64,000 nt of DNA from assembly GCA_017525035.1 (NCBI GenBank), contig JAFXTH010000004.1, positions 48,385 through 112,384 on the forward strand. The letters are read 5' to 3'. The stretch is from Bacilli bacterium. GTDB lineage: Bacteria; Bacillota_I; Bacilli_A; RF39; UBA660. The notes beneath the pieces were generated by a model, which did not search any database, had not been told where the DNA came from, and saw only the letters and a program-made list of their open reading frames with translations. Below, in pieces: positions 3,001-42,708 of this stretch. The position numbers and the translations under genes were made by a program. How positions within the stretch are numbered: position 1 is the first letter of the stretch; each line of letters opens with the position of its first letter.

Positions 3001-3160
3001 AATAGATTAGCTTCATATAATGTTGAAGTTACTATTAAAATACTTTTATCTTGTGTTTCAAAAACTTTATTTATATACAACGAAAAGAATTCGTCGTTCA
3101 ATCCGACCAATCCTACTTTTTTTGAATCTTTAATTGTAACTAAGTCTTCAAATAAGTTCA
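1..3160 (-). CDS. mfd: Transcription-repair coupling factor Mfd. Only the N-terminal part is in the window; the gene runs off the left edge.
   Basis: The reverse-complement ORF starts at ATG 3160, preceded by AGGAG. The translation MNLFEDLVTIKDSKKVGLVGL...EFFGDEIESIRIFD matches the Mfd N-terminal and UvrB-like domains. It sits immediately downstream of pth, as in Bacillus. Confidence 0.8.
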
Positions 3161-6090: not shown

Positions 6091-6282
6091 TCACCTCCAA
6101 TAAAAAATTTTTAGTATTGCTACCAACGTTGCTAACCCTGGAATGTCTAGAAATGATACGATACCTAATGTATAAAAATTAATGGGTATCATAATATTAT
6201 AAGACGTTGCCACTAAGTTATATGTATATAAAAGTATAAAAGCAAATACTATTTTTCTAATTATTTTTATTACTGTTTTCAT
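6091..6282 (-). CDS. bofA: BofA-family small membrane protein (pro-sigma-K processing inhibitor-like).
   Basis: The 63-aa, two-TM protein contains IMIPINFYTLGIVSFLDIPGLATLVAILKIF, which resembles the B. subtilis BofA core (PINLVT...GIPGIAALVVIKQF). It lies downstream of recR, as bofA does in Bacillus. Confidence 0.55.
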   Translation of the reverse strand: MKTVIKIIRKIVFAFILLYTYNLVATSYNIMIPINFYTLGIVSFLDIPGLATLVAILKIFYWR

Positions 6283-9457: not shown

Positions 9458-9479
9458 ATGATCAACTCCAATAAAAAAT

Positions 9480-9553
9480 GATGCACATAAGCACAGACAT
9501 GTTAAGGCTGCTACATTCCTGTTCTGACCTGGTTCCACCGTACTTATTGCATC
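9480..9553 (-). ncRNA. ffs: Small (4.5S-type) signal recognition particle RNA.
   Basis: The minus strand contains ACCAGGUCAGAACAGGAAUGUAGCAGCC. This matches the universally conserved SRP RNA domain IV (E. coli 4.5S ACCAGGUCAGGUCCGGAAGGAAGCAGCC). The flanks CCAGGUCAG and AGCAGCC are identical and the GGAA tetraloop is present. The long helix is closed by GAUGCA/UGCAUC and AUAAG/CUUAU pairing. It is preceded by a TTGATT-N17-TAAAAT promoter and followed by AUUUUUUAUU. The exact ends are approximate. Confidence 0.75.
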
Positions 9554-9559
9554 AATGTA

Positions 9560-12220: not shown

Positions 12221-14143
12221 CTAAATATCTAAGTTTTGAACGTATCCAGCATTTTCTTCTATGAATTTTCTTCTTGGATCTACTTCATCACCCATTAGTT
12301 TTTCAAAGATTGCATCTGCTGCTACACAGTCATCTACAGTTATTTTTCTTAATACACGCTTTTCTATGTCCATTGTAGTCTCGTTTAACTCTTCAGCGTC
12401 CATTTCACCTAATCCTTTCATACGAGCGATTTCTGCCCTGTTTCTGACGTTTTCAGGTAATGTATTTAAATAACTTTCTAGTTCTTGTTCATTTAGTACA
12501 TATTTTCTTGTTTTACCATGTTGAATTCTAAATAATGGAGGTTGTGCAGCATATATATGCCCTGCTTCAACGATTGGTTTAAAGAATCTATAGAATAATG
12601 TTAGTAATAATACTCTTATGTGTGATCCATCAACGTCGGCGTCGGTCATTATTACTATTTTGTCATATCTAAGTTTTGATAGGTCAAATTCTTCACCAAT
12701 TCCAGTACCAAATGCAGTAATTATTGTTCTAATTTCTTCATTTGATAATGCTCTATCTAATCTTGCTTTTTCAACATTTAATATTTTTCCTCTTAATGGA
12801 AGAATAGCTTGTGTCATTGAATCTCTACCTTTTTTAGCAGAACCACCTGCTGAATCTCCCTCGACTATAAAGATTTCAGATACTTTTGGATCTTTACTCT
12901 TACAATCTGATAATTTTCCAAAGAAGTTTGTTGTAGCTAAGTCACTCTTTCTTGTTATTTCTCTTGCTTTTCTTGCTGCATTTCTTGCACGACACGCTAA
13001 CATAGCTTTACTAACTATTGCACGTGCATCATCTGGATTTTCTAATAAAAATCTTTCAAATCCTTGTGCAAAAACATTATCTGCAAGTTTTCTTACTTCA
13101 GAGTTTCCAAGTCTTCCTTTTGTTTGTCCCTCAAACTGTGGATTTGGATGTTTACAAGAAATAATCATTGTTAATCCTTCTTTAACATCATCTCCAGTTA
13201 GAGGTTCATCTTTTTCTTTTAATATATTATTTTTTCTAGCATAATTGTTGATAACTCTTGTTAAGGCACGTCTTACACCTTCTTCATGAGTACCACCATC
13301 ATGAGTATTTATATTATTAACAAATGAATATATATTTTCATTGTATCCAGTGTTATACTGCATAGCAACTTCAAAGAATACTCCATCTTCTTCTCCATCT
13401 AAGTGAATAATATCTTCATGTACTGGAGTCTTACCAGTATTAATGAATTTAACATATTCACTAATACCACCTTCATATAAGAATGTTTGTCCTGTAGTAT
13501 CTTCATCATCTCTATCATCTCTTAAATTAATTGATAATCCTTTATTTAAGAATGCTAGTTCTCTTACTCTAACCATTAATGTTTCATAATTATAAATGTC
13601 AGAATCAAATATTTCAGGATCTGGTTTGAATGTTACTGTAGTACCTGTTCTATTTTTATCACATTCTCCAATTACTTTTAATGGCTCAATAGTATGCCCA
13701 CCATTTTCAAATTTCATGTAGTTAACTTTACCATCTTTGTATACTGTTACTTCTAACCATTTTGATAAAGCATTAACTACTGATGCACCAACTCCATGAA
13801 GACCTCCAGATACTTTGTATCCTCCTCCACCAAATTTACCACCAGCATGTAATACAGTATAAACTGTTTCTACTGTTGATTTTCCAGTTTTTGGGTGAAT
13901 ATCTGTTGGTATTCCACGTCCATCATCTTTAACAGTAATTGAATTATCTTTATTAATTACTATTTCAATATTATGACAAAAACCAGCTAATGCTTCATCT
14001 ATTGAATTATCTACAATTTCCCATACTAAGTGATGTAATCCTTTTACATCAGTAGTACCTATATACATTCCTGGTCTTTTTCTTACAGCTTCAAGTCCTT
14101 CTAAAACTTGTATAGAAGATGAATCATATTTTTCATTATCCAT
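12221..14143 (-). CDS. gyrB: DNA gyrase subunit B.
   Basis: The 640-aa product has the GHKL ATPase motifs ([19 protein letters not shown]), a Toprim domain ([14 protein letters not shown]) and [12 protein letters not shown]. Confidence 0.95.
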
Positions 14144-15260
14144 TTCCTTTTCCCACCTTTTCTATAATGTTACCTTTTACTACTTTGAATATTTTAGCAG
14201 AAGATAAGAAATTTTTATTAATACCTCTAGTATCATTAGTAGTAACTATTACTTGAATATCATTATTAATATATTTAATTAATTTATTTCTAGTTTTAAT
14301 ATCAAGTTCACTAAATACATCATCTAATAATATTATAGGATTTGTATTAGTCATTTCCTTAAATATATTTATTTCTGATAATTTTAAGGCAATTATTGCA
14401 ACTTTTTGTTGTCCTTCTGAACCAAATACCTTTATATCATCCTCTCCTATTAAGAATCTTAGTTCATCTCTATGAGGACCATATAAAGTCATACCATTAT
14501 CAATTTCTTTCTTTAAAGAATTCTTATATTTTTTTTCTAATCTTTCTTTTAAGTTTTCTTCATTAAAACTATCAATATCAATATTAGGTTCATATATTAT
14601 ATGAAAGTTCTTAATACCTAATATATCTTCATATATTTTAGAAACATTATCATTTAATTGATCAATAAAGTTCTTTCTTTCAATATAGATATCTATCTCC
14701 CTTTCTATTAGATTTTCGGTAAGACTATCGAGATATCTTCTATCTGGATTAGAACTATTACTTAACATTTTTAAATAATTATTTCTAATTTTAAGTATTT
14801 TATTGAATTCATTATACTTTTTAATATAATTTTTTGATAATTGAGAAAGTTCAATATTTAAGAAATTTCTTCTTTCTGCTGGTGTTCCTTGAAGAATATT
14901 AATATCTTCAGGACATACTAATATAACATTTAGATTAGTAATATAATCAGATATCTTATAAATATCATTATTATTTACTTTTACTTTCTTTACTCCATCT
15001 TTAATTTCTACAGATAGATTCTTTAAAATATTATTATCTTTAGTCTCACCTTTTACTTTAGTAGCTGTTTCATTCTTCATAACTAAGTTTGAATCAACAG
15101 TTCTATAAGATTTAGTAAGTGCTAAAAAATAAATACTTTCTAATATATTGGTTTTACCTTGAGCATTATCTCCTATAAATAAATTTATATTTTTATCAAA
15201 ATCTATTTTTAATTTTTTAATATTTCTAAAATTTACTAGATTAATTTTTCTTAAAATCAA
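14136..15260 (-). CDS. recF: DNA replication and repair protein RecF.
   Basis: The 374-aa product has Walker A GDNAQGKT and an SMC-like signature. It sits in the recF-gyrB arrangement. Confidence 0.9.
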
Positions 15261-15344
15261 GAATTTTTGTAAAAAATGCTCATATTCTCACCTTAACCTA
15301 TATTAGTATACCTATACACACAATATAATTATATCACAAATTGA

Positions 15345-15378
15345 GGTCTAAAACAAAGAAAAAAGGGAATTAATCCCT
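15345..15378 (-). terminator. Terminator-like hairpin (GGGAuuaauuCCC) that contains the ComK-like stop codon and is followed by a U-run.
   Basis: Read on the minus strand. The stem is weak (4 bp) but is flanked by A/T runs on both sides, so it may act bidirectionally. Confidence 0.3.
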
Positions 15379-15828
15379 TTTTTTTGCATTTAATCTCTTA
15401 AAAATTATTGATTCTAATTTTGATGATCGATAAATTTGATTTTCTAAAGATAATTTTGATATATCAAATATCATTTCTTTCCCATTTTTAAAGTAAATTT
15501 TAGTCTTATTATCTACTTTTTCAATTGATTTTATGCTGTTTAAATTAATCCAGCAACAATCATCTAATAATGATGACTTAATAGGAAAAAATATTAGTAC
15601 ACTACTTTCTTCTACTAATATTGGTAATTTGTAGCTGCAATCTAGTATTTTTTTAGCTCCTTCTACCCTACCCATGTAACTACTACCATAGTATTTACAA
15701 CTTTCATCCATTATTTTGTAAGCATCATTATCTAGTATTACATCATAATCTTTTTCAATAATTCTAGTTTTCCCCACATCTGTCGATATTACAGCGTAAG
15801 TATCTTCATTAATTTCATAACAATTCAT
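15370..15828 (-). CDS. comK: ComK-family protein (competence transcription factor homolog).
   Basis: The 152-aa product aligns with B. subtilis ComK across its core. CKYYGSSYMGRVEGAK aligns with CRFFGSSYAGRKAG. CCWINLNSIKSIEK aligns with CGWISHVHVKEFKA. YFKNGKEMIFDISKLSLENQIYRSSKL aligns with TFSNGKTMELPISYNSFENQVYRTAWL. Confidence 0.75.
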   Translation of the reverse strand: MNCYEINEDTYAVISTDVGKTRIIEKDYDVILDNDAYKIMDESCKYYGSSYMGRVEGAKKILDCSYKLPILVEESSVLIFFPIKSSLLDDCCWINLNSIKSIEKVDNKTKIYFKNGKEMIFDISKLSLENQIYRSSKLESIIFKRLNAKKRD

Positions 15829-15831
15829 ATA

Positions 15832-15859
15832 TATCCCCCTTTGTTTGAGGATATATTAT
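15832..15859 (-). promoter_or_regulatory. Hairpin (AUAUAUCC...GGAUAUAU) that overlaps the ribosome-binding site and start codon of the ComK-like gene.
   Basis: The minus-strand mRNA reads AUAUAUCCUCAAACAAAGGGGGAUAUAUAUG. The 3' arm includes the last Gs of the SD (AAAGGGGG) and the spacer before AUG. Confidence 0.4.
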
Positions 15860-15869
15860 CACTTTATTT

Positions 15870-15886
15870 TGTCGAAAATTGTCGAA
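15870..15886. promoter_or_regulatory. Tandem TGTCGAA repeats (15870-15876 and 15880-15886, 10-bp periodicity) matching the Spo0A 0A-box consensus, upstream of the ComK-like gene.
   Basis: The exact heptamer occurs twice. An overlapping minus-strand TATAAT lies at 15886-15891. Confidence 0.4.
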
Positions 15887-15903
15887 TTATATCGTAATAT
15901 TAA

Positions 15904-17034
15904 TTAATATGTTCTAATTGGTACTACTAATTGAAGTAATCCATCGTCTTTTGTATTTTTAATAACAATTGGTTTTACTTCTCCAACAAATGACATTTCA
16001 ACTTCTTCAGTACTTAATGCATTTAAAGCATCCATCATATATTTAGCAGAAAATGCAATAGTAATATCTTCTTTATTGTTCTTTTTAATATTCATCTTCA
16101 TTTCTGCTTTACCTTTTTCATTAGAAACTGATTTAACTGTTAATAAATCACCTTTTGTTGATAAAGATACAATATTTTTCTCTTTATCAGTTGTTAAAAT
16201 ACTTGCTTGTTCTATAACATTATATAATTGTGATAAATTTCCAGTTATAGTTAAGCTAAATTCTTCAGGTATAGATTTATTAGTTGGAGGATAATTTCCA
16301 TTAATTAATCTAGATTGAAATAATAAATCATTACTTTCAAATAAGATTTTATTGTTAAATACGTGTAATTTAACCTCTTCCTCACTAGAATCTAGTATTC
16401 TTGAAAATTCAATAATATTCTTTCCAGGAATAATTAAATTATAATTTTCTTCAACAGTTTTATCTAATCTTAAGTTCTTTCTAGCTAATCTATATGAATC
16501 TGTTGCTACACATTCAAGTAAATCACCATTAATTTTGAAGCTAATACCTGTTAACACTTCCCTTGATGTATCATTTGATGTTGCAAAAGCTGTTTCTTTA
16601 ACTATACTTAATAAATCTTTTGTTGTAATAGTTATAAAGTTTTCACTCTTCTCTAGATTAATATTTGGATAATCATTCTTATTAATAACATTTAAATCAT
16701 ATTTAATAGATTCATCATCTGTATATATAAGAACTTTAGTTTCATCAAATACTTCAATATTAATTTCTTCTGCAGGAATTACTCTTATTATTTCTACTAT
16801 ATCCTTACCATGAAGTATAACTACTCCTTCTTTTTCAACATTTATACTTTTCTTATCTATAGGTATAAATTTTTGAATAGTAATATCATTATTAGATGCA
16901 GTAAGTGTTAAGCCTTTTTTATCAAGATCAAACTTTATTCCTGCTAATGTAGGTATTAAATCTTTTGTTGCTATTGCTTTAGAAACTTTGTTAAGATTTT
17001 CTAATAATAAATCCTTTTTAATTTTTAATTTCAT
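15904..17034 (-). CDS. dnaN: DNA polymerase III beta sliding clamp.
   Basis: The 376-aa product lies immediately downstream of dnaA. It has a beta-clamp three-domain composition (MKLKIKKDLL...LQLVVPIRTY). AGAGGT is the ribosome-binding site. Confidence 0.9.
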   Translation of the reverse strand: MKLKIKKDLLLENLNKVSKAIATKDLIPTLAGIKFDLDKKGLTLTASNNDITIQKFIPIDKKSINVEKEGVVILHGKDIVEIIRVIPAEEINIEVFDETKVLIYTDDESIKYDLNVINKNDYPNINLEKSENFITITTKDLLSIVKETAFATSNDTSREVLTGISFKINGDLLECVATDSYRLARKNLRLDKTVEENYNLIIPGKNIIEFSRILDSSEEEVKLHVFNNKILFESNDLLFQSRLINGNYPPTNKSIPEEFSLTITGNLSQLYNVIEQASILTTDKEKNIVSLSTKGDLLTVKSVSNEKGKAEMKMNIKKNNKEDITIAFSAKYMMDALNALSTEEVEMSFVGEVKPIVIKNTKDDGLLQLVVPIRTY

Positions 17035-17159
17035 TTTTATTACCTCTTTCTTTTATATGATTTTCTTATTATAGGAGTGGAAAATGTTTATAACTATGTT
17101 TTAGCCTTAAATTATTGAATATTGCTTAACATTTAATCCACAATCCTGTTGATATTTTG
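17035..17159. promoter_or_regulatory. The dnaA-dnaN intergenic part of oriC, with a weak DnaA box TTAATCCACA (17134-17143) and AT-rich unwinding-element-like sequence.
   Basis: The position is typical of the second oriC half in Firmicutes. The boxes have 1-2 mismatches. Confidence 0.45.
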
Positions 17160-18542: not shown

Positions 18543-18893
18543 GTCATCAAGCCCCCCGCCTAATAATTACAAGAATTATTGTAGACTAAATGTTCAAAAA
18601 AGAAAAGAGAAAATCAATAAAAAAAATTATCAACAAGAATTGCACAAAGTTTTCCATAATTAATATCTTTTATTTATATATGTTATATAAGTTTTCCACA
18701 TTTTCCACAAATTTTTAGTCACATTGTGTAGAAATTTGTTTACAGATTTATCAACAATGTTGTTAATTATGTGAATAAGTTTAAAATGTTAACATATTTA
18801 TGTTGATAACTTTTTATTTTAATGATATCATTTTATTGACATTTAGAGATTTACTTTATATAATAATGTAGATTTTAGTTTGGAGGTGGAATT
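18543..18893. promoter_or_regulatory. oriC: oriC upstream region. It holds a cluster of DnaA-box-like 9-mers and an AT-rich stretch ending in the rpmH promoter.
   Basis: TTATCAACA occurs at 18628 and 18748. TTTTCCACA occurs in tandem at 18692-18700 and 18701-18709. The reverse boxes are TGTGAATAA (18770) and TGTTGATAA (18801). The region lies between divergent dnaA and rpmH. Confidence 0.7.
18836..18864 (+). promoter_or_regulatory. rpmH promoter: TTGACA (18836-18841), 17-nt spacer, TATAAT (18859-18864).
   Basis: Consensus -35 and -10 with ideal spacing, about 30 nt upstream of the rpmH GTG. Confidence 0.7.
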
Positions 18894-22411: not shown

Positions 22412-23500
22412 ATGAATGATGTAACTTCTTTTTTTAATAGAGAAATAAAAGAAAAAGATGCTATTTCTTTTTTAATTAATGGTAGAAAAAAGAATAATCA
22501 ATTTTATAATTATCTAACAAGAAAAATAATATCTCAATTAGAAGTTAGTTATCATTTATATCCAATTGGTCCTGCTTTGCTTGTTTATAATACTAAAAAT
22601 ATTCTCTCTCCAATATTTGAGGATAAAGATCCTTATGTGCTAAGTAAGATAGATAAACTTGATAAAGATAATAAAGATCATTTAGTATTCTCAAAAGCAT
22701 ATACAGATAAATTATCTATGCGCTGGGAATATAATATTTCTTTAGAAGAATTTAAAGAAAAAATAAGCAAATATCTAACAAAAGAGCAAAATGAGCAGGT
22801 AAAAGGACATTATAAAAATTTAAAGAAATGGATAGAAATAACTATTACAAATAAATTAAATAGCATGCCAAATATAGAAATAGAAAAACAAATATATATA
22901 AAATGTTTTGATAATTATATGAAATCAACTAATGAATTTAAAAAATATATAGAATATTTAAAAAAAGATATAATATCAAATTATAAAGTATATCAAATAA
23001 TATTCACACATGATTTCAAAAGAGCTAGATTATTGGAAATAATACACTATATAAGGGAAAAAATTATAAGTGACATGCTAATAAAATATGATAACAACTA
23101 TAGAAAATATGATCTAACCACATTAACTAATAATAAATTCTTTAAAGCAACAGTAAAACCAAATCAAATAGTTAGTAGTTTAATTGCATTAGATAATGAA
23201 TATGAATCGGCAAAGAAAATAAATAATACAGAGAAGTATATTGAAGCAGTAACTATAATTTTCCAAAAGTTTATAAAAATACATCCATATAAAGATGGAA
23301 ATGGAAGAACATCTAGATTATTACTAGATATAATGCTTTTAAATAAGGATATTTTTCCACCAATTTTATATGATACAAATTATGATAGAGCTAACTTAGA
23401 TACACCAAGCCACGAGTATACATTACATAATAATGAAAAACCAATAATAGAGTTCATTAAAAATAGAATTAAAATTACAAATAAAGAATATATAAAATAA
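22412..23500 (+). CDS. Fic/DOC-family protein (putative AMPylation/adenylyltransferase domain).
   Basis: The Fic motif HPYKDGNGRTSRLL matches the consensus HPFx(D/E)GNGR. Confidence 0.7.
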   Translation: MNDVTSFFNREIKEKDAISFLINGRKKNNQFYNYLTRKIISQLEVSYHLYPIGPALLVYNTKNILSPIFEDKDPYVLSKIDKLDKDNKDHLVFSKAYTDKLSMRWEYNISLEEFKEKISKYLTKEQNEQVKGHYKNLKKWIEITITNKLNSMPNIEIEKQIYIKCFDNYMKSTNEFKKYIEYLKKDIISNYKVYQIIFTHDFKRARLLEIIHYIREKIISDMLIKYDNNYRKYDLTTLTNNKFFKATVKPNQIVSSLIALDNEYESAKKINNTEKYIEAVTIIFQKFIKIHPYKDGNGRTSRLLLDIMLLNKDIFPPILYDTNYDRANLDTPSHEYTLHNNEKPIIEFIKNRIKITNKEYIK

Positions 23501-23594
23501 TCAAATAAATAATTGTGGTACATTGTGTAAAATGGCATAGTTTATTTGATTTTTTTATCTAAAAATAGTATTATTGTGTTTAGCGGTGGTTGAA

Positions 23595-26500
23595 ATGAAA
23601 TTATTAAACTTAGGATTAGATGTCGGTTCTACTACTGTTAAGCTAGTTGTTTTAGACAGTAAAAAGAATATATTATATAAGGAATATAGAAGACATTTTT
23701 CTGATACAAAGAAAACAATAGGAGATTTACTAGGGGAAGTTATTAAAAAGTATTCTAAAGATAAATTTACTATTACTATGACAGGAAGTGGAGCGCTTGC
23801 GCTTGCTAAGTTTTTGGATGTAAATTTTGTTCAAGAAGTAATTGCATGTAAAAATGCAATTTTTGAGTATGCAAAAGGAGTAGACGTTTGTATAGAACTT
23901 GGTGGAGAAGACGCTAAGATTATTTATTTTGATCATACTATAGAACAAAGAATGAATGGTACTTGCGCAGGAGGTACTGGATCTTTCTTGGATCAAATGG
24001 CGGTTTTATTAAATACTACTACAGAAGGACTTAATGAATATGCTAAAAAGGGTGAAACAATATATCCTATTGCATCAAGATGCGGTGTATTTGCTAAAAC
24101 AGATATTCAACCTTTATTAAATGAAGGAGCTAAAAAAGAAGATATAGCATTATCAATAATGCAAGCTGTTGTTAATCAAACGATAAGTGGACTTGCTTGT
24201 GGTAAACCAATCAAAGGTAATGTAATATTCTTAGGTGGACCATTAACATATTTATCAATGCTAAGAGAAAGATTTATAAAAACATTAAATCTTAAAGATG
24301 AAGAAATATATGCCCCAGAAGATGCTAATTTATTTGTGGCAATAGGAAGTGCTCTTGATACAGAAGAAAAGAAAGAATTTACTAATAAGGAATTAAGTAA
24401 ATTAAAAGAGAAATTAAATGAGTTCACAGAAAGTGAATCAGTAGATTTACCTGCATTATTTAAAGATGATAAAGAATATGCAAAATTTAAAAAGAGACAT
24501 TCTAAAGCATCAGTTAAAAGAAGAGATTTAGCAAAATATCATGGAGATATATTCTTAGGAATAGATGCAGGAAGCACAACCTGTAAGGTTGTTGCAATTA
24601 GCTCAAAAGGTGAACTTTTATATGAAAATTATAAGAGTAATAAAGGTACACCAGTTGATACTGTTAAAAATATGTTATTAGATTTTTATTCTAAATGTCC
24701 TAAAAACACAGTTATAAGACAATGCGGTTCTACAGGATATGGAGAGTTATTAATTAAAACAGCATTTAATTTAGACATTAGTGAAATAGAGACTATGGCT
24801 CATTTTGAAGCAGCAAGATATTTCTTAAAAGAAGTTGAAAGCATTATAGATATCGGTGGTCAAGATATGAAATATATCAAGATCAAAGATGGTTCAGTTA
24901 ATTCTATAATGCTTAATGAAGCTTGTTCGTCTGGATGTGGATCATTTATTGAGACATTAGCTAAAAGTCTTGAAATAAGCATAGATGATTTTGTTGATCT
25001 TGCCGTAAAAAGTAAAGCACCAATTGATTTAGGTAGTCGTTGTACGGTGTTTATGAATAGTAAAATTAAACAAACACAAAAAGAAGGTAGACCGCTTGGT
25101 GATATCTTTGCAGGTCTTTCTTATTCAGTAATTAGAAATGCTATTCAAAAAGTAATGAAAATAAGAGATATGGAAACTCTTGGATCTAAAATAGTTGTTC
25201 AAGGTGGTACATTCTTAAATGATGCAGTATTAAAAGCATTTGAAAATATTACAGGCAAAGAAGTAATAAGACCAGATGTAGCAGGATTAATGGGTGCTTA
25301 TGGAGTAGCATTAATCGCACTTGATAGTTATAAAAAGTATAAGGATAAAGATATAAAGAGTTCTATATTAAATGTAGACGAGATAAATAATCTAGAAATT
25401 AAAACATCTGTTGCAAGATGCCAAAGATGTGAAAACCATTGTGCTCTTACTATAAATAGATTTAATAAAAAAGCTTTTATTTCTGGTAATAGATGTGAAA
25501 GAGGTAGTGGTAACAATGGAAGTAATACAACTCTTCCAAATATGTATTCATGGAAATATGATAGACTATTTGGTTATGAACCACTAGATAATGCTCCTCG
25601 TGGAGAAATAGGAATACCAAGAGTACTTAATATGTATGAAAATTATCCATTATGGTTTACTATACTTACTAATTTAGGATTCAAAGTAGTATTATCAGAT
25701 CATTCAAATAGAAGAATTTATGAAAGCGGAATTGATTCAATACCTAGTGAATCAGTATGTTATCCAGCTAAATTAGTACATGGACATATGGTTAATTTAA
25801 TAGAGAAGGGTGTTAAAACAATTTTTTATCCATGTGTAATATTTGAGAAAGAAGAATTTAAAAACACAGATAATCATTATAACTGTCCAATAGTACAAAG
25901 TTATGGAGAATCCATAAAACTAAACTTAGAAGATTTAAAAAGTAAACACATTAAATATATAAATTCATTCTTACCTTTAGAAGAAAAAACATTAATCAAT
26001 TTATTCTTAAAACTTCCTGAATTTAAAGAATATAAATTTAATAAAAAAGAAGTTAAAGAAGCAGTACATAAAGGATTCTTAGAACAAGAAAAGTTTAAGG
26101 AAGATGTTAGAAAAAAGGGAGAGGAATTCTTAAAATACATTAATGATCATGATGAAAAAGCAATAGTACTTGCAGGAAGACCATATCACTTAGATAAGGA
26201 AGTAAATCATGGTATTGATACAATGATAAATTCTTTAGGTCTTGCTGTATTATCAGAAGATTCAATATGTCATTTAAGTAAATTAGAATCAAATTTGCGT
26301 GTAGTAAATCAATGGGAATATCATGCAAGAATATTCCATGCAGCTGATGTAGTATCACAATATGATAACATTGAACTTGTTAATCTAAACTCATTCGGAT
26401 GTGGACTTGACGCTATTATTACGGATCAGGCTGAAGAAATACTAAGATTTAACAATAAGTTATTTACTACAATAAAAATAGATGAAATAAATAATCTTGG

Positions 26501-27809
26501 AGCAGCGAAGATAAGAATTAGATCTTTGATTGCATCAATGAATAAAAGGATTGAAAGTAATAAATATTCTCCATATGAATATGAGAAGAATTATTTTAAG
26601 AAAAGTGATAAAGAACATATATTACTTCTTCCAGATATGACAGCATTCCATATGCCTTTACTTGAGTCAGTATTAAAAAGTTGTAAATATAAAGCAGTAT
26701 ATCTAAGAGAGACGACAGATAAGACTATTGAAACAGGACTTAAATATGTTAATAACGATGCATGTTATCCTGCAATAATAGTAACTGGTCAATTAATTGA
26801 GGCGTTACAAAGTGGTAAATATGATCTAGATAACACAAGTGTTATTATTACTCAAACTGGTGGAGGATGCCGTGCTACTAACTATATTGGATTAATTAGA
26901 AAAGCACTTAAAGATGCTGGTCTTGAAAAAGTTTCTATATTATCATTCAATTTAAGTGGAATGGAAAAAGAACAAGCATTCAAGATAACTCTTCCAATGG
27001 TTAATAAATTATTACAAGCGGTTGCATATGGTGATTTATTAATGAAACTTCTTTACTCAACAAGACCTTATGAAGTAAATAAAGGTGAAAGTAAGAAGTT
27101 ATATGATAAATGGAATGATATTTGTTATAAAGCAGTAACAAAGGGTAGCATTAGAGAATATAGAAAGAATGTTAAAGCGATTGTTAAAGATTTTGATAAC
27201 ATTAAGGTAAAATTAACAGATAAGCCTAAAGTTGGAATTGTTGGAGAAATCTTAATTAAGTATCATACTTTTGGGAATGATAATTTAGTTGATAAACTTG
27301 AAAAAGAAGGATCAGAAGTATGTGCTCCAGAATTAATGGGATTTGTTAAGTATTGTGCATTCGATAGTATCGCACGAGATAAATTGTTAAAGAAAAATTC
27401 ATTCTATTCATATGCTTGTAAAAAATTAATAAGCATTATTGGATTTTATGAAAAGCCAGTAAACAAAGCATTGGATAAGACAAGATTTAGAAAGACAACA
27501 GATATTTATAAATTATCTAAGAATGTTGAAGGTATTATATCTTTAGCAAACCAGACTGGTGAAGGTTGGTTCTTAACTGGTGAAATGATTGAATTTATTA
27601 AAGAAGGTATAAATAATATCGTCTGTGTTCAACCGTTCGCATGCCTTCCAAACCATATAGTGGGTAAGGCAGTTATAAAAAGAATTAGAGAACTTTACCC
27701 AAATAGTAACATAGTTGCAATAGACTATGATCCAGGTGCAAGTCATACTAATCAAGTTAACAGAATTAAGTTAATGTTAACTGTGGCAAAAGAAAAGCAA
27801 AAGAAATAG
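23595..27809 (+). CDS. Giant fusion protein with two BadF/BadG/BcrA/BcrD-type activator ATPase domains fused to a 2-hydroxyacyl-CoA-dehydratase (HgdB/D-component-like) domain. It is annotated in databases as a 'CoA-substrate-specific enzyme activase'.
   Basis: The two ATPase domains begin GLDVGSTTVKLVV and GIDAGSTTCKVVA. A Cys-rich linker follows (CQRCENHC, CERGSG), then about 700 aa of dehydratase-like sequence. The start was chosen at ATG 23595 after GGTGGT. Confidence 0.65.
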   Translation: MKLLNLGLDVGSTTVKLVVLDSKKNILYKEYRRHFSDTKKTIGDLLGEVIKKYSKDKFTITMTGSGALALAKFLDVNFVQEVIACKNAIFEYAKGVDVCIELGGEDAKIIYFDHTIEQRMNGTCAGGTGSFLDQMAVLLNTTTEGLNEYAKKGETIYPIASRCGVFAKTDIQPLLNEGAKKEDIALSIMQAVVNQTISGLACGKPIKGNVIFLGGPLTYLSMLRERFIKTLNLKDEEIYAPEDANLFVAIGSALDTEEKKEFTNKELSKLKEKLNEFTESESVDLPALFKDDKEYAKFKKRHSKASVKRRDLAKYHGDIFLGIDAGSTTCKVVAISSKGELLYENYKSNKGTPVDTVKNMLLDFYSKCPKNTVIRQCGSTGYGELLIKTAFNLDISEIETMAHFEAARYFLKEVESIIDIGGQDMKYIKIKDGSVNSIMLNEACSSGCGSFIETLAKSLEISIDDFVDLAVKSKAPIDLGSRCTVFMNSKIKQTQKEGRPLGDIFAGLSYSVIRNAIQKVMKIRDMETLGSKIVVQGGTFLNDAVLKAFENITGKEVIRPDVAGLMGAYGVALIALDSYKKYKDKDIKSSILNVDEINNLEIKTSVARCQRCENHCALTINRFNKKAFISGNRCERGSGNNGSNTTLPNMYSWKYDRLFGYEPLDNAPRGEIGIPRVLNMYENYPLWFTILTNLGFKVVLSDHSNRRIYESGIDSIPSESVCYPAKLVHGHMVNLIEKGVKTIFYPCVIFEKEEFKNTDNHYNCPIVQSYGESIKLNLEDLKSKHIKYINSFLPLEEKTLINLFLKLPEFKEYKFNKKEVKEAVHKGFLEQEKFKEDVRKKGEEFLKYINDHDEKAIVLAGRPYHLDKEVNHGIDTMINSLGLAVLSEDSICHLSKLESNLRVVNQWEYHARIFHAADVVSQYDNIELVNLNSFGCGLDAIITDQAEEILRFNNKLFTTIKIDEINNLGAAKIRIRSLIASMNKRIESNKYSPYEYEKNYFKKSDKEHILLLPDMTAFHMPLLESVLKSCKYKAVYLRETTDKTIETGLKYVNNDACYPAIIVTGQLIEALQSGKYDLDNTSVIITQTGGGCRATNYIGLIRKALKDAGLEKVSILSFNLSGMEKEQAFKITLPMVNKLLQAVAYGDLLMKLLYSTRPYEVNKGESKKLYDKWNDICYKAVTKGSIREYRKNVKAIVKDFDNIKVKLTDKPKVGIVGEILIKYHTFGNDNLVDKLEKEGSEVCAPELMGFVKYCAFDSIARDKLLKKNSFYSYACKKLISIIGFYEKPVNKALDKTRFRKTTDIYKLSKNVEGIISLANQTGEGWFLTGEMIEFIKEGINNIVCVQPFACLPNHIVGKAVIKRIRELYPNSNIVAIDYDPGASHTNQVNRIKLMLTVAKEKQKK

Positions 27810-30481: not shown

Positions 30482-31807
30482 ATGAAAAATAAGAAAGAAA
30501 AAGCTTTCACGTTAATTGAATTATTGGCAGTTATTATAATCTTGGGAATACTTATGATTATAGCAATTCCAAGTGTTACTAGTTACATTTCAACATCAAG
30601 AAAAAGCGCATATATTGATACTGCTAGACAGGTTATAGCAAGTACAAGAAATTTAGTTAATAGTGGAAAATTAAGTATGTTTGATAGAAGTGCAACATAT
30701 TATATCCCAACAAGTTGTATTAAACTTGAAAATAGTAATACTCCAGTATCTCCTTATGGAGATTTTGAAAGAGCATATATAGTAGTTACTTACGAAGGGT
30801 CAAATTATAACTACTATTGGGTAAGTGTAGATGAAACAGGACAAGGAATTAGTACACTTACTAAAGTCGATGATTTGGATGAAGATTTAATTAAAACAGG
30901 ATTAAAAGGATCAGATATTGTTTTAGAAAATATTTCTGGAAAGAATCGATTAGTAGAATTCACAGCAGATTGTAAGAATACAATCAATCATGTTGATGAT
31001 GCTGGTTCAGATGCTGCAAATACAACAGATAATATTACATGGACTTATAATGATATGAGTATAAGTGTTGATGTTCATTTATCACAGTGTAACATAAGTG
31101 GCGATTATAAAATTTGTTATAATGCAACAATCGATGCTTCTAATGTTGGAGAAAATGCAACAATTAAATATTTTGAAGCTATATTTGATATTCCGCAAGG
31201 TACTGAATTAGTTCATCAAGGGTATGATCCAGATAAGTTAAAAGCAGAAATTGTTGATGGAAAATTAAAAATTATTGGAAACTCTGGACAAAATACATGG
31301 AATTTTTTAACACCAAGTAACGGATCAAGTCACTTATCAGGTGGTTTCCAAATTAAATTCCCTAAAGATGTTGATTTTGTATTACAAAATGGTAAAATTC
31401 AATATGTTGAATTAGTTAGTGGTGTTCAAGAAGGTAATTCATCAGGAGTTCAAGGCAATGCTTCTGATATGAATATTGATCTTGCAAAACTTAATATTAG
31501 ACTTGTAAGAGATAATTACTATAATAGTGGAAATGGTAAATATACTGCACAATACACTGTATATGTTAAAAACATTTCTGATTCTGATATTACTGATTGG
31601 TCATTTGTTCTTGAAGCACCAGATACTATTACTAATATATCTTCATATAACCCATTAATTTATAGTAAGAGTGGAAATGTTTATACATTTACTCCATTTG
31701 AATGGGATAATGAATATAGAACATTGTCACCAAATGAAACAGCACACTATGATAAAAAATTGGTAATAGAGACAACTGATATGAACGCTATTCCAACAAT
31801 TAGATAG
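30482..31807 (+). CDS. Large type IV pilin-like protein with a prepilin-type N-terminal domain.
   Basis: The N-terminus MKNKKEKAFTLIELLAVIIILGILMIIAIPS is a class III signal-peptide/methylation motif, with Ala instead of Gly at -1 and the conserved Glu at +5. It is followed by about 400 aa of Ser/Thr/Asn/Gly-rich, beta-rich sequence. Confidence 0.65.
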   Translation: MKNKKEKAFTLIELLAVIIILGILMIIAIPSVTSYISTSRKSAYIDTARQVIASTRNLVNSGKLSMFDRSATYYIPTSCIKLENSNTPVSPYGDFERAYIVVTYEGSNYNYYWVSVDETGQGISTLTKVDDLDEDLIKTGLKGSDIVLENISGKNRLVEFTADCKNTINHVDDAGSDAANTTDNITWTYNDMSISVDVHLSQCNISGDYKICYNATIDASNVGENATIKYFEAIFDIPQGTELVHQGYDPDKLKAEIVDGKLKIIGNSGQNTWNFLTPSNGSSHLSGGFQIKFPKDVDFVLQNGKIQYVELVSGVQEGNSSGVQGNASDMNIDLAKLNIRLVRDNYYNSGNGKYTAQYTVYVKNISDSDITDWSFVLEAPDTITNISSYNPLIYSKSGNVYTFTPFEWDNEYRTLSPNETAHYDKKLVIETTDMNAIPTIR

Positions 31808-31904: not shown

Positions 31905-33218
31905 ATGAATGACAATAATAGCGAAGTAGTATATTTATATTTGGATGATATTATTCCAAATAGATTTCAACCAAGAGAAGTATTTGATGAACAAGCATTA
32001 AAAGAATTAGCTGTATCAATCAAAGAACATGGAGTTATACAACCAATTATTGTAAGACAGGTTGAAAATAAATATGAAATTATTGCAGGAGAAAGAAGAT
32101 ATAAGGCATCAACAATGGCAGGTCTTACAAAGATACCTGCAATTGTTAAGAATTTAGATGATAAAGAAAGTTCTAAAATAGCTTTAATAGAAAATCTTCA
32201 GAGAAAAGATTTATCACCAATTGAAGAAGCAAGAACATATCAAAAGATTCTTGAAATTGAGGATAATATGACTCAAGAAGAACTTGCTGCTACTATGGGT
32301 AAAACTCAATCTTCTGTATCTAATAAATTAAGATTGTTAGCATTACCTGAAGAAGTTCAAGATGCTTTATTGAAAGATAAAATATCTGAAAGACATGCAA
32401 GAACATTATTAAACTTAGAAGATAGAAACGATCAAATAAAGATGATGGATCGAGTAATAGAAAATAAAATGACAGTAAGAGAGCTTGAAAAAGCAATTAA
32501 AGAATTTAAAGATCCTACAAGTATTGTGGAAGAAAATCAAGCTATAGATGCAGCTCCAGCGATTGTAAATGTTGATGATGCATCACTTAGTGCTAGCGAT
32601 TTAGTAAATGAAGAATCACAATCAACAGAAAGAACATTGGCGGATACATTTATGGATATTAAAAATGGAATAGACACAGAAACAAATACTGAAGCAGTTT
32701 CTGTTGAAGAACAAATAGACGCAATTGATCCAACAGAAGTAAATATAGACAAAATAAGAGAAAGTGCAGTGGACATTGGAGGAGCAAAAGTTGAAGAGGC
32801 TACAGAAGTAAGTCCTGAACCACAAATGGGATTTAAATTTGTTCCATCGTTCAGTTCAGCAGGAACAGTAACAGAACCTCCAACAACACCGGAAGTTGTG
32901 GCAGTAGAACCCGTAACAGAAGCACCTGCGCCAACTGAAGAAGTATCAGATATATCTCCTGCTTTTGAACAACCATCTCAAGACTTAGTTAATAAAGAAC
33001 CAACACTAGATGAAATAAATCAACCAGATACAATTGCAGCAGAGATTGGAAACCAACCTATAGCAATAGCAGCAGGTGGTAAAGATATATCAACAGCTAT
33101 TGAAAAAATAAAAGAAGAAGTTGATAGTTTAAAGAATGATGGCTACAACGTAATGCTTGATGAAATGGATAATAAAGACAATTATTTGATTTCAATTATT
33201 TTTAAGAAAGATGCATAG
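31905..33218 (+). CDS. noc: ParB-family nucleoid occlusion protein (Noc-like) with a long acidic/Pro/Thr-rich C-terminal extension.
   Basis: The N-terminal ParB motifs are present (IIAGERRYKAS, HTH region). It lies between rsmG and soj, the Noc position in Bacillus. Residues from about 230 to 437 are low-complexity (EPVTEAPAPTEEVSD...). Confidence 0.7.
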   Translation: MNDNNSEVVYLYLDDIIPNRFQPREVFDEQALKELAVSIKEHGVIQPIIVRQVENKYEIIAGERRYKASTMAGLTKIPAIVKNLDDKESSKIALIENLQRKDLSPIEEARTYQKILEIEDNMTQEELAATMGKTQSSVSNKLRLLALPEEVQDALLKDKISERHARTLLNLEDRNDQIKMMDRVIENKMTVRELEKAIKEFKDPTSIVEENQAIDAAPAIVNVDDASLSASDLVNEESQSTERTLADTFMDIKNGIDTETNTEAVSVEEQIDAIDPTEVNIDKIRESAVDIGGAKVEEATEVSPEPQMGFKFVPSFSSAGTVTEPPTTPEVVAVEPVTEAPAPTEEVSDISPAFEQPSQDLVNKEPTLDEINQPDTIAAEIGNQPIAIAAGGKDISTAIEKIKEEVDSLKNDGYNVMLDEMDNKDNYLISIIFKKDA

Positions 33219-33242
33219 TTTTCTTTCTTTTTTTTTCTAAAA

Positions 33243-33268
33243 AAGGATTTATTAATCCTTTATTATTT
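33243..33268 (+). terminator. Intrinsic terminator after noc (AAGGATT-tatt-AATCCTT plus T-rich).
   Basis: Read directly from the sequence. Confidence 0.5.
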
Positions 33269-33306
33269 GGTAAAATAATATAGAAGTTATTAAGAAGGTG
33301 ATGTAG

Positions 33307-34092
33307 ATGGGAAAAATGATTTCTTTAGTTAATCAAAAAGGTGGAGTTGGTAAAACTACTACTAGCATTAACTTATCTGCGTCTTTAGCTTATTTAGGTA
33401 AAAAAGTATTATTATTAGATTTAGATCCACAAGGAAATACCACTACTGGTATTGGTATGAATAAAGGTGATATAGATAGAACTATCTATGATGTATTAAC
33501 TGGAAAATGCAATATTGAAGATGCTATTATCCACACACAATACAAGAGATTGGATTTAATTCCAGCAACTGTTAACTTAAGTGGATTAGACACTGAATTT
33601 TTCGAAAAATCTAAAGAAGAACCTAACTTTGTTAAAGGAGCACAATTAAAAAATAAAATTAAATCAATTAGAGACAATTACGATTATATTATCGTTGATT
33701 GCCCACCATCACTAAGTATTATTACAATAAATGCTTTGACTGCATCAAACTCAGTTATAATACCAGTTCAATGTGAGTTCTTAGCACTTGAAGGTATTAT
33801 GCAATTATTAAATACAATTATGATGGCACAAAAACAATTAAATCCTAGTCTTGAAATTGAAGGAGTTTTACTAACAATGTTAGATTCAAGAGCAAATTTA
33901 GGATTTGAAGTAGTTGAAGAAATCAGAAAGTATTTCAAAGAAAGAGTTTATAATACAATTATTCCAAGACTTGTTAGACTTGCAGAGTCTCCATCTCATG
34001 GGAAGCCAATAATAGCATATGATCCAAAATGTAGAGCAACTGATGCTTATATAAATTTAGCGAAGGAAGTGATTGAGAGAAATGGACAATAA
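33307..34092 (+). CDS. soj: Chromosome partitioning ATPase ParA/Soj.
   Basis: The 261-aa product has the deviant Walker A NQKGGVGKTTT. Confidence 0.9.
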   Translation: MGKMISLVNQKGGVGKTTTSINLSASLAYLGKKVLLLDLDPQGNTTTGIGMNKGDIDRTIYDVLTGKCNIEDAIIHTQYKRLDLIPATVNLSGLDTEFFEKSKEEPNFVKGAQLKNKIKSIRDNYDYIIVDCPPSLSIITINALTASNSVIIPVQCEFLALEGIMQLLNTIMMAQKQLNPSLEIEGVLLTMLDSRANLGFEVVEEIRKYFKERVYNTIIPRLVRLAESPSHGKPIIAYDPKCRATDAYINLAKEVIERNGQ

Positions 34093-34966
34093 CACTTATA
34101 AAAGAAGAGCTTTAGGAAAAGGATTAGAGGAACTATTTAACAACGAACAAATTAATTTTGATCAAATTGAGGAGAAAATACTAGATTCAAGTACAAGAGA
34201 TGAAATAGTAGAATTGCCAGTTGATGAGTTAAGACCTAACCCATATCAACCTAGAAAAGTATTTGATGAAGATAAGTTAAATGAACTAGCTAATTCAATT
34301 AAAGAACATGGTATTTTTCAACCAATTATTGTTAAGAAAAGTTCAATAAAAGGTTATGAAATAATTGCCGGTGAAAGAAGAGTTAAAGCTTGTAAAATTG
34401 CTGGTATTGAAAAGATACCTGCTATAGTAAGAGATTTCACTGATGAACAAATGATGGAAATTGCATTGCTAGAAAACTTACAAAGAGAAAATTTAAACTC
34501 AATAGAAGAAGCAATGGCTTATAAAAACTTGCTTGATGCAATGAAAGTAACACAAGAAGAACTTGCTAAAAGGTTAGGTAAGAGTAGAAGTCATATTACT
34601 AACATGTTAGGACTTCTAAATCTTCCTGAAGAAGTAAAAGATATGATTGTAGAAGAGAAAATATCTATGTCTCATGCAAGAGTATTAAGTAAGATGGAAA
34701 ATAAAGAAGAAGTTATAGCACTTGCTAATAGAATTGTTAATGAAAGATTAAATGTTAGAGATATAGAAGATGTATCTAAAGATGAATCTATCAAGAAAAC
34801 ACATAAGATTAAAGTAAAACAAAACAATAAATATGAGTATATTCAAAATACAATGTGTGAAAAACTAGGTACAAAAGTTAAGATAACTTCTAATAGAATA
34901 AATATTACATTTACTAATGATAATGATCTAAATAGAATATTAGAAATATTAAATATTGGTGAATAA
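34082..34966 (+). CDS. spo0J: Chromosome partitioning protein ParB/Spo0J.
   Basis: It has ParB box motifs (IIAGERRVKACK, HTH LAKRLGKSRSHITN) and overlaps the soj stop. The start was chosen at MDNNTY; the track starts at 34073. Confidence 0.85.
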   Translation: MDNNTYKRRALGKGLEELFNNEQINFDQIEEKILDSSTRDEIVELPVDELRPNPYQPRKVFDEDKLNELANSIKEHGIFQPIIVKKSSIKGYEIIAGERRVKACKIAGIEKIPAIVRDFTDEQMMEIALLENLQRENLNSIEEAMAYKNLLDAMKVTQEELAKRLGKSRSHITNMLGLLNLPEEVKDMIVEEKISMSHARVLSKMENKEEVIALANRIVNERLNVRDIEDVSKDESIKKTHKIKVKQNNKYEYIQNTMCEKLGTKVKITSNRINITFTNDNDLNRILEILNIGE

Positions 34967-42372: not shown

Positions 42373-42708
42373 ATGAAAAGCGTAAAAACGAATAGTAAAA
42401 CGCACGGATATAAGCAATCTAAATTCAAAAAGAAGACATTGCGTATCCTACTTTTTGGTGTGCCTAGCTTAATTGTTATGATTTATTTCTTTACATATGC
42501 ATTTAATATGTCTTTAGAAATAGTATCAAAGTATGATGAGAAGGAAGAATTAGAGCACGATTTAAATGATCTTAAAGAGAAGGAACAAGAACTATCGACC
42601 GATGTTTTAAAACTTCAAGATCCTGAATATGTAGCAAGATATTTAAGGGAAAAATATTATTATTCAAAGAATAATGAGTATATAATAAAATTGCCAAATA
42701 AAAATTAA
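42373..42708 (+). CDS. Septum formation initiator family protein (FtsB/DivIC-like).
   Basis: A single TM segment is followed by a coiled coil and the conserved DPEYVARYLREKY segment. Confidence 0.6.
   Translation: MKSVKTNSKTHGYKQSKFKKKTLRILLFGVPSLIVMIYFFTYAFNMSLEIVSKYDEKEELEHDLNDLKEKEQELSTDVLKLQDPEYVARYLREKYYYSKNNEYIIKLPNKN

Follow-up and report, generated by a model that had tools for sequence, protein, structure and literature searches.

In Bacillus subtilis, the promoter of comK (PcomK) is bound directly by phosphorylated Spo0A (Spo0A~P) (Mirouze et al. 2012, PMC3297582). Five imperfect Spo0A sites, three activating ones upstream and two repressing ones at or after the -35 element, are interleaved in this promoter with ComK boxes and with inputs from Rok, CodY, AbrB, and DegU. 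The promoter has normal -35 and -10 elements, and competence, or the K-state, is tied to the level of Spo0A~P. Here we describe a ComK-family gene, likewise with probable Spo0A boxes in its promoter, in a 64-kb stretch of contig JAFXTH010000004.1 from a Bacilli bacterium (the window, meaning the whole stretch of DNA analyzed). In contrast to B. subtilis comK, which occupies an unrelated chromosomal site, this gene lies between dnaN and recF, and its leader packs into 75 bp three phased boxes (two of them perfect) that abut an extended -10 element, with no -35 element and no AT-box. The best single account of the locus, which we put forward with moderate confidence from the comparison of sequences, is that comK would be gated and activated by Spo0A~P and insulated at the level of translation by a fold-back hairpin. 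Direct action of Spo0A on comK is already known from B. subtilis (PMC3297582), as is the ComK annotation in the metagenome-assembled genomes (MAGs) considered here. As far as our searches of the literature reach, the clade-wide placement of comK between dnaN and recF, the 75-bp promoter composed of three phased 0A boxes and an extended -10, and the conserved comK read-through hairpin have not been described and would be new.

How does this leader compare with other regulated promoters? The spoIIG and spoIIE promoters of B. subtilis are Spo0A-activated sigma-A promoters with a -35-like element 21 to 22 bp from the -10 element and a 0A box overlapping it. Going by this spacing, the comK leader is alike in the 21 bp that separate the TCGACA of its middle box from the -10 element, in the orientation of the boxes, and in their tandem arrangement, but it differs in carrying an extra box at -30 to -24 in the spacer and an extended -10. 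At PhoB-dependent promoters, direct repeats (pho boxes) take the place of the -35 element, the last of them stopping some 10 bp short of the -10 element at a fixed spacing. That layout is alike, but PhoB belongs to the winged-helix family and its boxes have an 11-bp period, and the likeness is one of mechanism only. For the hairpin, the closest parallel is the fold-back inhibition of the IS10 transposase, which Davis, Simons and Kleckner are said to have described in 1985 and in which the ribosome-binding site is reportedly hidden only in transcripts that enter from outside. The logic of a 5' arm lying upstream of the start site would be the same at comK, where start site and read-through are both predicted; IS10 shields its transposase, whereas the comK hairpin would shield a chromosomal master regulator from the essential dnaA-dnaN operon. 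Finally, comCDE of Streptococcus pneumoniae reportedly lies near oriC and rises in copy number under replication stress, as Slager et al. are said to have found in 2014; a competence switch beside oriC is common to both cases, with ComCDE/ComX as the regulator there and ComK here.

The assignment of the gene to the ComK family, first made by an initial annotation of the window from sequence alone, was borne out by a search with the Pfam ComK profile (PF06338), which matched the 152-amino-acid (aa) protein over its full length (E = 2.8e-38; score 131.5 bits, cut-off 22.3; model positions 3 to 150 of 152). The protein had no match among NCBIfam models and no meaningful match among solved structures. 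We take it to be a complete domain without the C-terminal extension of B. subtilis ComK (152 versus 192 aa). A total of 342 ComK homologues were found, and the exact protein, recorded as 'MAG: competence protein ComK [Bacilli bacterium]', occurs on at least 24 metagenomic contigs, several of which come from rumen-derived assemblies and the longest of which measures 276 kb. Among 17 ComK orthologues, 59 residues are invariant. These comparisons indicate that comK is under purifying selection and has orthologues across species.

Scanning one genome per GTDB species yielded 19 further comK loci, which encode ComK proteins 44 to 95% identical to that of the window; comparisons over 20 loci below refer to the window plus these 19 relatives. 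The gene order of the window, dnaA-dnaN-comK-recF-gyrB-gyrA, recurs widely: dnaA and dnaN lie upstream of comK in all 19 relatives and recF and gyrB downstream in 18 of them, the contig of locus L025 ending inside comK so that only dnaA-dnaN-comK is visible. DnaN identity across the relatives ranges from 54 to 97%, and ComK identity tracks that of DnaN and RecF. The initial annotation had placed the gene in the dnaN-recF gap, and this placement holds across the relatives, among them Clostridium sp. CAG:710 and a circular 1.31-Mb MAG. Synteny throughout the clade indicates that comK in this gap is a conserved, vertically inherited clade trait rather than a local insertion. The clade consists of uncultured, small-genome Bacilli of the gut and rumen with a low GC content of about 27%; the window itself also has about 27% GC, and its GC skew switches near dnaA.

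The comK leader measures about 75 bp in all loci. Exact copies of TGTCGAA/TTCGACA occur five times in the 64 kb, and the two in the comK leader (R2 and R3; Table 1) form the sole tandem pair. The 17-mer TTCGACANNNTTCGACA, allowing up to two mismatches, was found twice against 0.18 occurrences expected, and the second match exposed a third, degenerate copy (R1). The two heptamers 10 bp apart that were initially annotated are thus present, but as members of a set of three phased boxes rather than two. When the leaders were aligned on the -10 element, all 20 displayed three (T/A)(T/A)CGACA(A)-type repeats with an exact 10-bp period in both intervals (40 intervals), and the R1 position often reads CGACA in the relatives. 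R3 lies exactly 8 nt upstream of TGnTAATAT or TGnTATTAT in 20 of 20 loci, the TG being present in 15. No -35 hexamer occurs at a spacing of 16 to 18 bp, where the window reads CAATTT. Downstream of the -10 element, all leaders continue with 6 to 7 C-rich nt and a CA that is likewise conserved before reaching AAAGGGGG and the start codon ATG; the GGGGG of the Shine-Dalgarno (SD) sequence is kept in 19 of 20 loci. The -10 element was identified through its conservation, a generic promoter scan having missed it, and its position predicts a comK transcription start at about A15846. The TATAAT at 15886-15891 on the minus strand, to which the initial annotation had drawn attention, does exist, in the gap between R1 and R2; as a -10 candidate it was rejected for its lack of conservation in the relatives, whereas the conserved element is TGATAATAT. 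Elsewhere in the 64-kb window no other tandem box array was found, including upstream of a 441-aa pilin-like gene, which argues against a local regulon; in 12-kb stretches of the relatives, arrays accompany comK but are sporadic near dnaA. A reading of AATTTTCGACAAAAT as a CodY box was also rejected, given four mismatches to AATTTTCWGAAAATT by eye and a conserved unit that is the phased CGACA and not the 15-mer palindrome. The repeats are almost certainly a functional cis-element.

Which protein would recognize these repeats? Read on the opposite strand, TTCGACA becomes TGTCGAA, the 0A box of Spo0A, in which Spo0A makes base-specific contacts to G2, C4, and G5 (PMC3485338). Over the 40 R2 and R3 sites of the 20 loci, the G equivalent to C4 is present in 36, the C equivalent to G2 in 35, and the equivalent of G5 in 26, in a genome of about 27% GC. 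Tandem 0A boxes 3 bp apart constitute a footprinted Spo0A site (PMC2731898), and the comK boxes are likewise separated by 3-bp gaps (the 10-bp period), matching a head-to-tail arrangement of dimers. The Spo0A of AT-rich lineages was sought by scanning metagenomes with an AT-biased back-translation of ERAIRHAIE, which gave at least 120 loci. Forty-nine of these, on contigs of 23 to 30% GC, encode a distinct type of Spo0A (PSHIKGY...), and a profile of this type retrieved more than 7,900 proteins, some of them named 'sporulation transcription factor Spo0A [Bacilli bacterium]' or '[Tenericutes bacterium]'. The C-terminal domain of the clade Spo0A can be aligned with 1LQ1, a complex of B. subtilis Spo0A and DNA (E = 1e-46), and has SRVERAIRHAIEV unchanged.

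The same motif recurs in front of spo0A itself. Exact sense TTCGACA was found at -50 to -133 upstream of spo0A in about 30 of the 43 AT-rich loci scored (37 with the distinct Spo0A type), often in phased arrays such as TTCGACAaaaTTCGACAaaa, and the 49 contigs with the distinct type carry 16 tandem arrays in 340 kb, compared to 0.1 expected. Phased TTCGACA arrays also precede spo0A on contigs whose Spo0A is not of the AT-rich Bacilli type. Autoregulation of spo0A through 0A boxes is established (PMC12090719, PMC3485338), and Clostridioides difficile Spo0A binds upstream of its own gene, where a consensus box lies at -75 (PMC3485338). Since an array thus stands upstream of a textbook autoregulated target, the motif appears to mark Spo0A sites in these lineages, with the same grammar as at comK. 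Both genes also occur together: MAG GCA_017625395.1 contains comK locus L022 (JAGALD010000065.1) and Spo0A P0163 (JAGALD010000074.1), and the two genes share a single scaffold (scaffold_82 of ERZ28612966; 190,372 bp), with comK P0075 near 70 kb and Spo0A P0288 near 177 kb, which leaves no doubt about binning. With conservation in 20 species, a fixed phase and distance to the -10 element, the arrays at spo0A, and the co-occurrence of comK and spo0A, the earlier proposal that the heptamers are Spo0A boxes gains support, and we regard Spo0A as the likely binder of the comK repeats.

The surroundings of spo0A in these genomes are themselves distinctive. In the clade, the gene directly follows tpiA, apparently within a gap-pgk-tpiA...gpmI glycolytic cluster (L149-L183; for example, L183 9166-11408 and L159 578-2924), and the next gene, in the comK clade, encodes a conserved 207- to 211-aa protein without a Pfam domain. 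In B. subtilis, spo0A adjoins spoIVB and recN.

Two observations weigh against Spo0A as the binder. A Spo0A from the window's own genome was not found among the best 120 Spo0A matches in either of two listings, and the boxes of one subclade (L012, L013, L016, L017, and L024) read AACGACA, so that 0A positions 6 and 7 are not kept there. Sample co-occurrence for Spo0A P0204 and P0259 gave no match either. A tblastn comparison of the window proteins with the Spo0A loci revealed no shared neighborhood. Could another protein occupy the repeats? An OmpR/PhoB-type response regulator is one candidate, as TGTnnn direct repeats with a 10- to 11-bp period are generally known to be typical of PhoB, PhoP, and WalR, but the period at comK is 10 bp, not 11, in 40 of 40 intervals. 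ComK itself is another; with no canonical AAAA-N5-TTTT box upstream of comK, autoregulation would need a different, lineage-specific site. Phased arrays upstream of spo0A genes, together with the binding of C. difficile Spo0A in front of its own gene, fit Spo0A and not ComK or a competence-specific regulator. DnaA is a third, because TTTTCGACA matches the DnaA box TTATCCACA at 7 of 9 positions, comK sits inside the dnaA-dnaN cluster, and in L021 a 0A-like box adjoins DnaA-type boxes upstream of dnaA. Yet at the position where DnaA boxes have their invariant C6, 36 of the 40 sites carry G and none carries C, and the DnaA boxes of the window (TTATCMACA, TTTTCCACA) cluster at 18627-18809 upstream of dnaA, with none in the comK leader; on these two grounds, DnaA boxes were rejected as the identity of the repeats. 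Taken together, binding by a protein other than Spo0A seems improbable.

If Spo0A does bind, would it switch comK on or off? On the layout of the leader, activation would be clearly the more probable of the two. Tandem dimers of Spo0A~P would occupy the three boxes, all on the same side of the helix, from about -50 to -24, and there replace the -35 contact, switching comK on, so that ComK would be made only when Spo0A~P is present. The absence of a -35 element and the 21 bp between the TCGACA of R2 and the -10 hexamer both speak for this, and the fixed 8-nt distance and the helical phase suggest a stereospecific contact with polymerase. The opposite arrangement, which we consider unlikely, has Spo0A~P as a repressor: the extended -10 would fire constitutively, Spo0A~P bound over -50 to -24 would block polymerase, and comK would be on during growth and off at commitment to sporulation. 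The box at -30 to -24 falls within a region that is normally covered by polymerase, and we know of no counterpart to it in Spo0A-activated promoters. In this genome recF, too, has a promoter that combines an extended -10 with a weak -35; firing of the comK promoter might therefore need no activator. In B. subtilis, moreover, the Spo0A site of PcomK that overlaps the -35 element (R1 of that promoter) is repressive (PMC3297582), and tandem boxes over the core promoter repress in phage Nf and at the phi29 A2c promoter (PMC2731898). A simple steric block, however, would tolerate variable spacing, whereas the 8-nt distance and the phase are exact in 20 of 20 loci. Direct-repeat sites that replace the -35 element about 10 bp upstream of the -10 element are, as generally known, the classic activating layout, as for PhoB at pho boxes. 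If ComK were constitutive in growth, there would be little point in a hairpin that silences the translation of read-through RNA; the only sensible purpose of such a hairpin would be to keep ComK off by default, which again favors activation.

A hairpin that could occlude the ribosome-binding site of comK had been noticed in the initial annotation. It is present, is longer than was described, and recurs in most relatives, but its 5' arm proved to lie upstream of the predicted start site. The arms ATATATCCTC and GGGGATATAT form 10 bp, including one G-U pair, around an 8-nt loop and engage 4 of the 5 G residues of the SD sequence; the predicted minimum free energy is -11.6 kcal/mol (z = -4.2 versus shuffled sequences), and prediction gives a similar fold for at least 14 of the 20 loci. 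The pairing of each locus's own arms beat 20,000 of 20,000 permutations of arms between loci (P < 5e-5), and in the row-wise test the five loci with divergent arms (L016, L017, L019, L020, and L022) paired best with their own partner. The SD arm pairs with its partner within the top 0.03 to 1.2% compared to random genomic 16-mers, and its complementarity ranks in the top 0.24% compared to 837 other -10-like 16-mers of the window. The 6 nt that follow the hexamer contain two or three C residues in most loci, whereas 79% of other -10-like sites have none or one.

What would such a hairpin accomplish? A scan of 15100-16100 detected no terminator-like site between dnaN and comK, the sole such site being the comK terminator; with dnaN lacking a terminator, dnaA-dnaN mRNA would run through comK to the comK terminator. 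In this read-through RNA, the -10 element and discriminator (AUAUAUCCUC) would pair with the SD sequence and spacer (GGGGAUAUAU) and hide the ribosome-binding site. Transcripts from the comK promoter would start at about A15846, just past the 5' arm, and would be translated in the absence of the hairpin. Because the 5' arm lies upstream of the predicted start, the hairpin would form only in dnaN read-through RNA and not in comK's own mRNA, and it probably keeps comK untranslated when the gene is merely read through from dnaN.

Part of the complementarity of the arms follows from two AT-alternating stretches, and a column-wise covariation test on equal-length arms was mixed, strict covariation being modest. 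The positive row-wise and mixed column-wise results together point to conserved complementarity rather than clean covariation. Pairing is also weak in L018, L021, L023, and L025. These points count against an insulating role, and the hairpin could instead be a by-product of AT-alternating sequences next to a strong SD sequence, or the true start could lie further upstream, in which case the hairpin would be part of every comK mRNA and act as a general translational brake (a thermosensor, or the target of a protein or small RNA). An Rfam scan of the window detected no known leader RNA. That the hairpin is weak or absent in those four loci, that the stem is AU-rich with about -12 kcal/mol, and that the start site is a prediction all fit such a reading. 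Against it stand the top 0.24% rank even among -10-like sequences, the recurrence of the fold in the five loci with differing arms, and a C-rich discriminator that is conserved despite a genome of about 13% C. Furthermore, going by the sole -10-like element that is conserved, transcription would begin just 3' of the arm, and the upstream TATAAT is not conserved. We consider a hairpin without an insulating role possible, though doubtful, and retain insulation from dnaN read-through as the preferred explanation.

At its 3' end, comK carries an intrinsic terminator that would end both comK transcripts and dnaA-dnaN read-through. It is kept, with changed stem sequences, in 19 loci (the window and L007-L024). 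The stem is built from the last comK codons (KKRD and the stop), and the species variants GGGATTAATTCCC, GAGATTAAAATCTC, and GGATATAAATCC keep the pairing; as the sequence varies while pairing is kept, the C-terminal peptide and the terminator appear to be co-constrained. The recF leader that follows (15261-15345 on the minus strand of the window; about 6470-6600 in L007-L024) contains a highly conserved extended -10, a strong SD sequence (AAGGTGA), and an upstream ORF (open reading frame) of 8 to 11 codons (MSIFYKNS and a stop in the window), the stop of which overlaps the recF TTG or ATG start. This overlap of stop and start suggests translational coupling. The short ORF may be the remnant of a lost yaaA-type gene.

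Table 1. Features of the comK locus and its surroundings in the window, listed by coordinate (functional roles are predicted)
Feature	Coordinates	Strand	Remarks
BofA-family gene	6091..6282	minus	Regulator of pro-sigma-K processing; Pfam PF07441, 45.2 bits versus cut-off 26.1
recF	14136..15260	minus	Own conserved extended -10 promoter TGTGATATAAT at ~15333-15323; short upstream ORF overlaps TTG start
Intrinsic terminator AAAAAAGGGATTAATTCCCTTTTTT	15359..15383	minus	Overlaps last comK codons; sole terminator-like site in 15100-16100
comK	15370..15828	minus	152-aa ComK-family protein; Pfam PF06338 match
Hairpin 3' arm GGGGATATAT	15829..15838	minus	Shine-Dalgarno and spacer
Shine-Dalgarno AAAGGGGG	15842-15835	minus	ATG at 15828-15826
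Hairpin 5' arm ATATATCCTC	15847..15856	minus	3' part of -10 hexamer and C-rich discriminator; predicted start immediately downstream
Extended -10 TGATAATAT	15853..15861	minus	TG 15861-15860, hexamer TAATAT 15858-15853; predicted from the 20-locus anchored alignment
R3, consensus 0A box TTCGACA	15870..15876	minus	~-30 to -24; extended -10 (its TG) 8 nt downstream
R2, consensus 0A box TTCGACA (TGTCGAA on plus strand)	15880..15886	minus	~-40 to -34
R1, distal degenerate 0A-like box TACGATA	15890..15896	minus	~-50 to -44 of predicted start; 10-bp phase with R2 and R3
dnaN	15904..17034	minus	Stop codon 7 nt before R1; no terminator-like site toward comK

The initial annotation had also viewed the locus in a context of sporulation-associated genes. 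The BofA-like gene was confirmed, as were PSP1/YaaT, YidC, Jag, two ParB genes, and ParA, but no case for sporulation follows from spo0J, spoIIIJ, jag, or yaaT, and BofA is the only sporulation-specific one among the confirmed context genes. Given that BofA is sporulation specific, the genome is argued to keep a sporulation program. SpoVG and YabP, which like BofA do count as signs of sporulation, are encoded on the same contig just beyond the left end of the window (L028 19921-20558), and spoIIE is absent between divIC (42373-42708) and tilS (42801-44126). The uncultured small-genome orders RF39 and ML615J-28 and part of RFN20 keep a reduced set of sporulation genes, spo0A being reported explicitly for two RFN20 families (Field et al., PMC10868615). 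The presence of BofA, SpoVG, and YabP and the lack of spoIIE fit this reduced set (PMC10868615).

The orphan type IV pilin-like gene noticed earlier was confirmed as encoding a 441-aa protein (30482-31807, plus strand) with a prepilin-type N-terminal cleavage/methylation motif and an N terminus like those of ComGC and GspG. Its gene is isolated, flanked by gidB and a parB-like gene and with no pilus assembly genes nearby, and the protein greatly exceeds the usual length of a competence pilin. Two checks that followed from the ComK assignment were negative: late competence genes were not seen in the 64-kb window, and the AT-box (AAAA-N5-TTTT) of ComK was missing, with no exact A4N5T4 box within 300 bp upstream of comK in 19 of 20 loci and no ComK-box pair in the 64 kb (near-exact patterns tested).

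Other features of the region concern the origin and its neighbors. A probable oriC lies upstream of dnaA, marked by six DnaA-box-like 9-mers (at most one mismatch) at 18627-18809, with adjacent TTTTCCACA copies at 18692 and 18701; one more DnaA box occurs at 17134, between dnaA and dnaN. In L021, a 0A-type box and DnaA-type boxes stand in phase upstream of dnaA at 3015-3045 (TTTTCGACAAATTTCCACAAAGTTCACA), an arrangement reminiscent of the 0A boxes at a replication origin that Spo0A~P has been reported to bind (PMC2731898). The usual gene order of the origin region is interrupted between trmE and gidA by genes for a Fic-domain protein (22412-23500, plus strand) and for a BcrAD_BadFG/DUF2229 protein of about 1,400 aa, of the 2-hydroxyacyl-CoA dehydratase activator type (23574-27809, plus strand). 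At 31905-34966 (plus strand), a ParA/Soj gene stands between two ParB-like genes, of 437 aa and about 294 aa, the first being unusually long for Noc or Spo0J. The only Rfam match in the window was a small bacterial signal recognition particle RNA between gyrA and tadA (9470-9559, minus strand; RF00169, 48.8 bits).

What may this locus mean for the organisms that carry it? We tentatively raise the idea, which is rather speculative, that the Bacillus competence network has collapsed in this clade to a two-layer switch within the replication operon, with Spo0A~P as the sole transcriptional input, acting through three phased 0A boxes in a promoter that lacks a -35 element, a fold-back hairpin that cancels constitutive read-through from dnaA-dnaN, and a dose linked to oriC. 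If true, the dose of comK would follow replication initiation or stalling, owing to the position of the gene beside oriC, and starvation signaling and replication status would both be linked to competence, or to a K-state-like arrest of growth or scavenging of DNA, in uncultured organisms. The leader would offer a natural 75-bp example of a promoter made solely of response-regulator repeats and an extended -10, and equally of how a fold-back hairpin can shield a master regulator from an essential operon lying upstream of it. A link between Spo0A and comK would indicate that Spo0A has targets beyond sporulation genes in reduced genomes, and its compactness would provide a testable wiring for the decision to take up DNA or enter the K-state in uncultured Bacilli.

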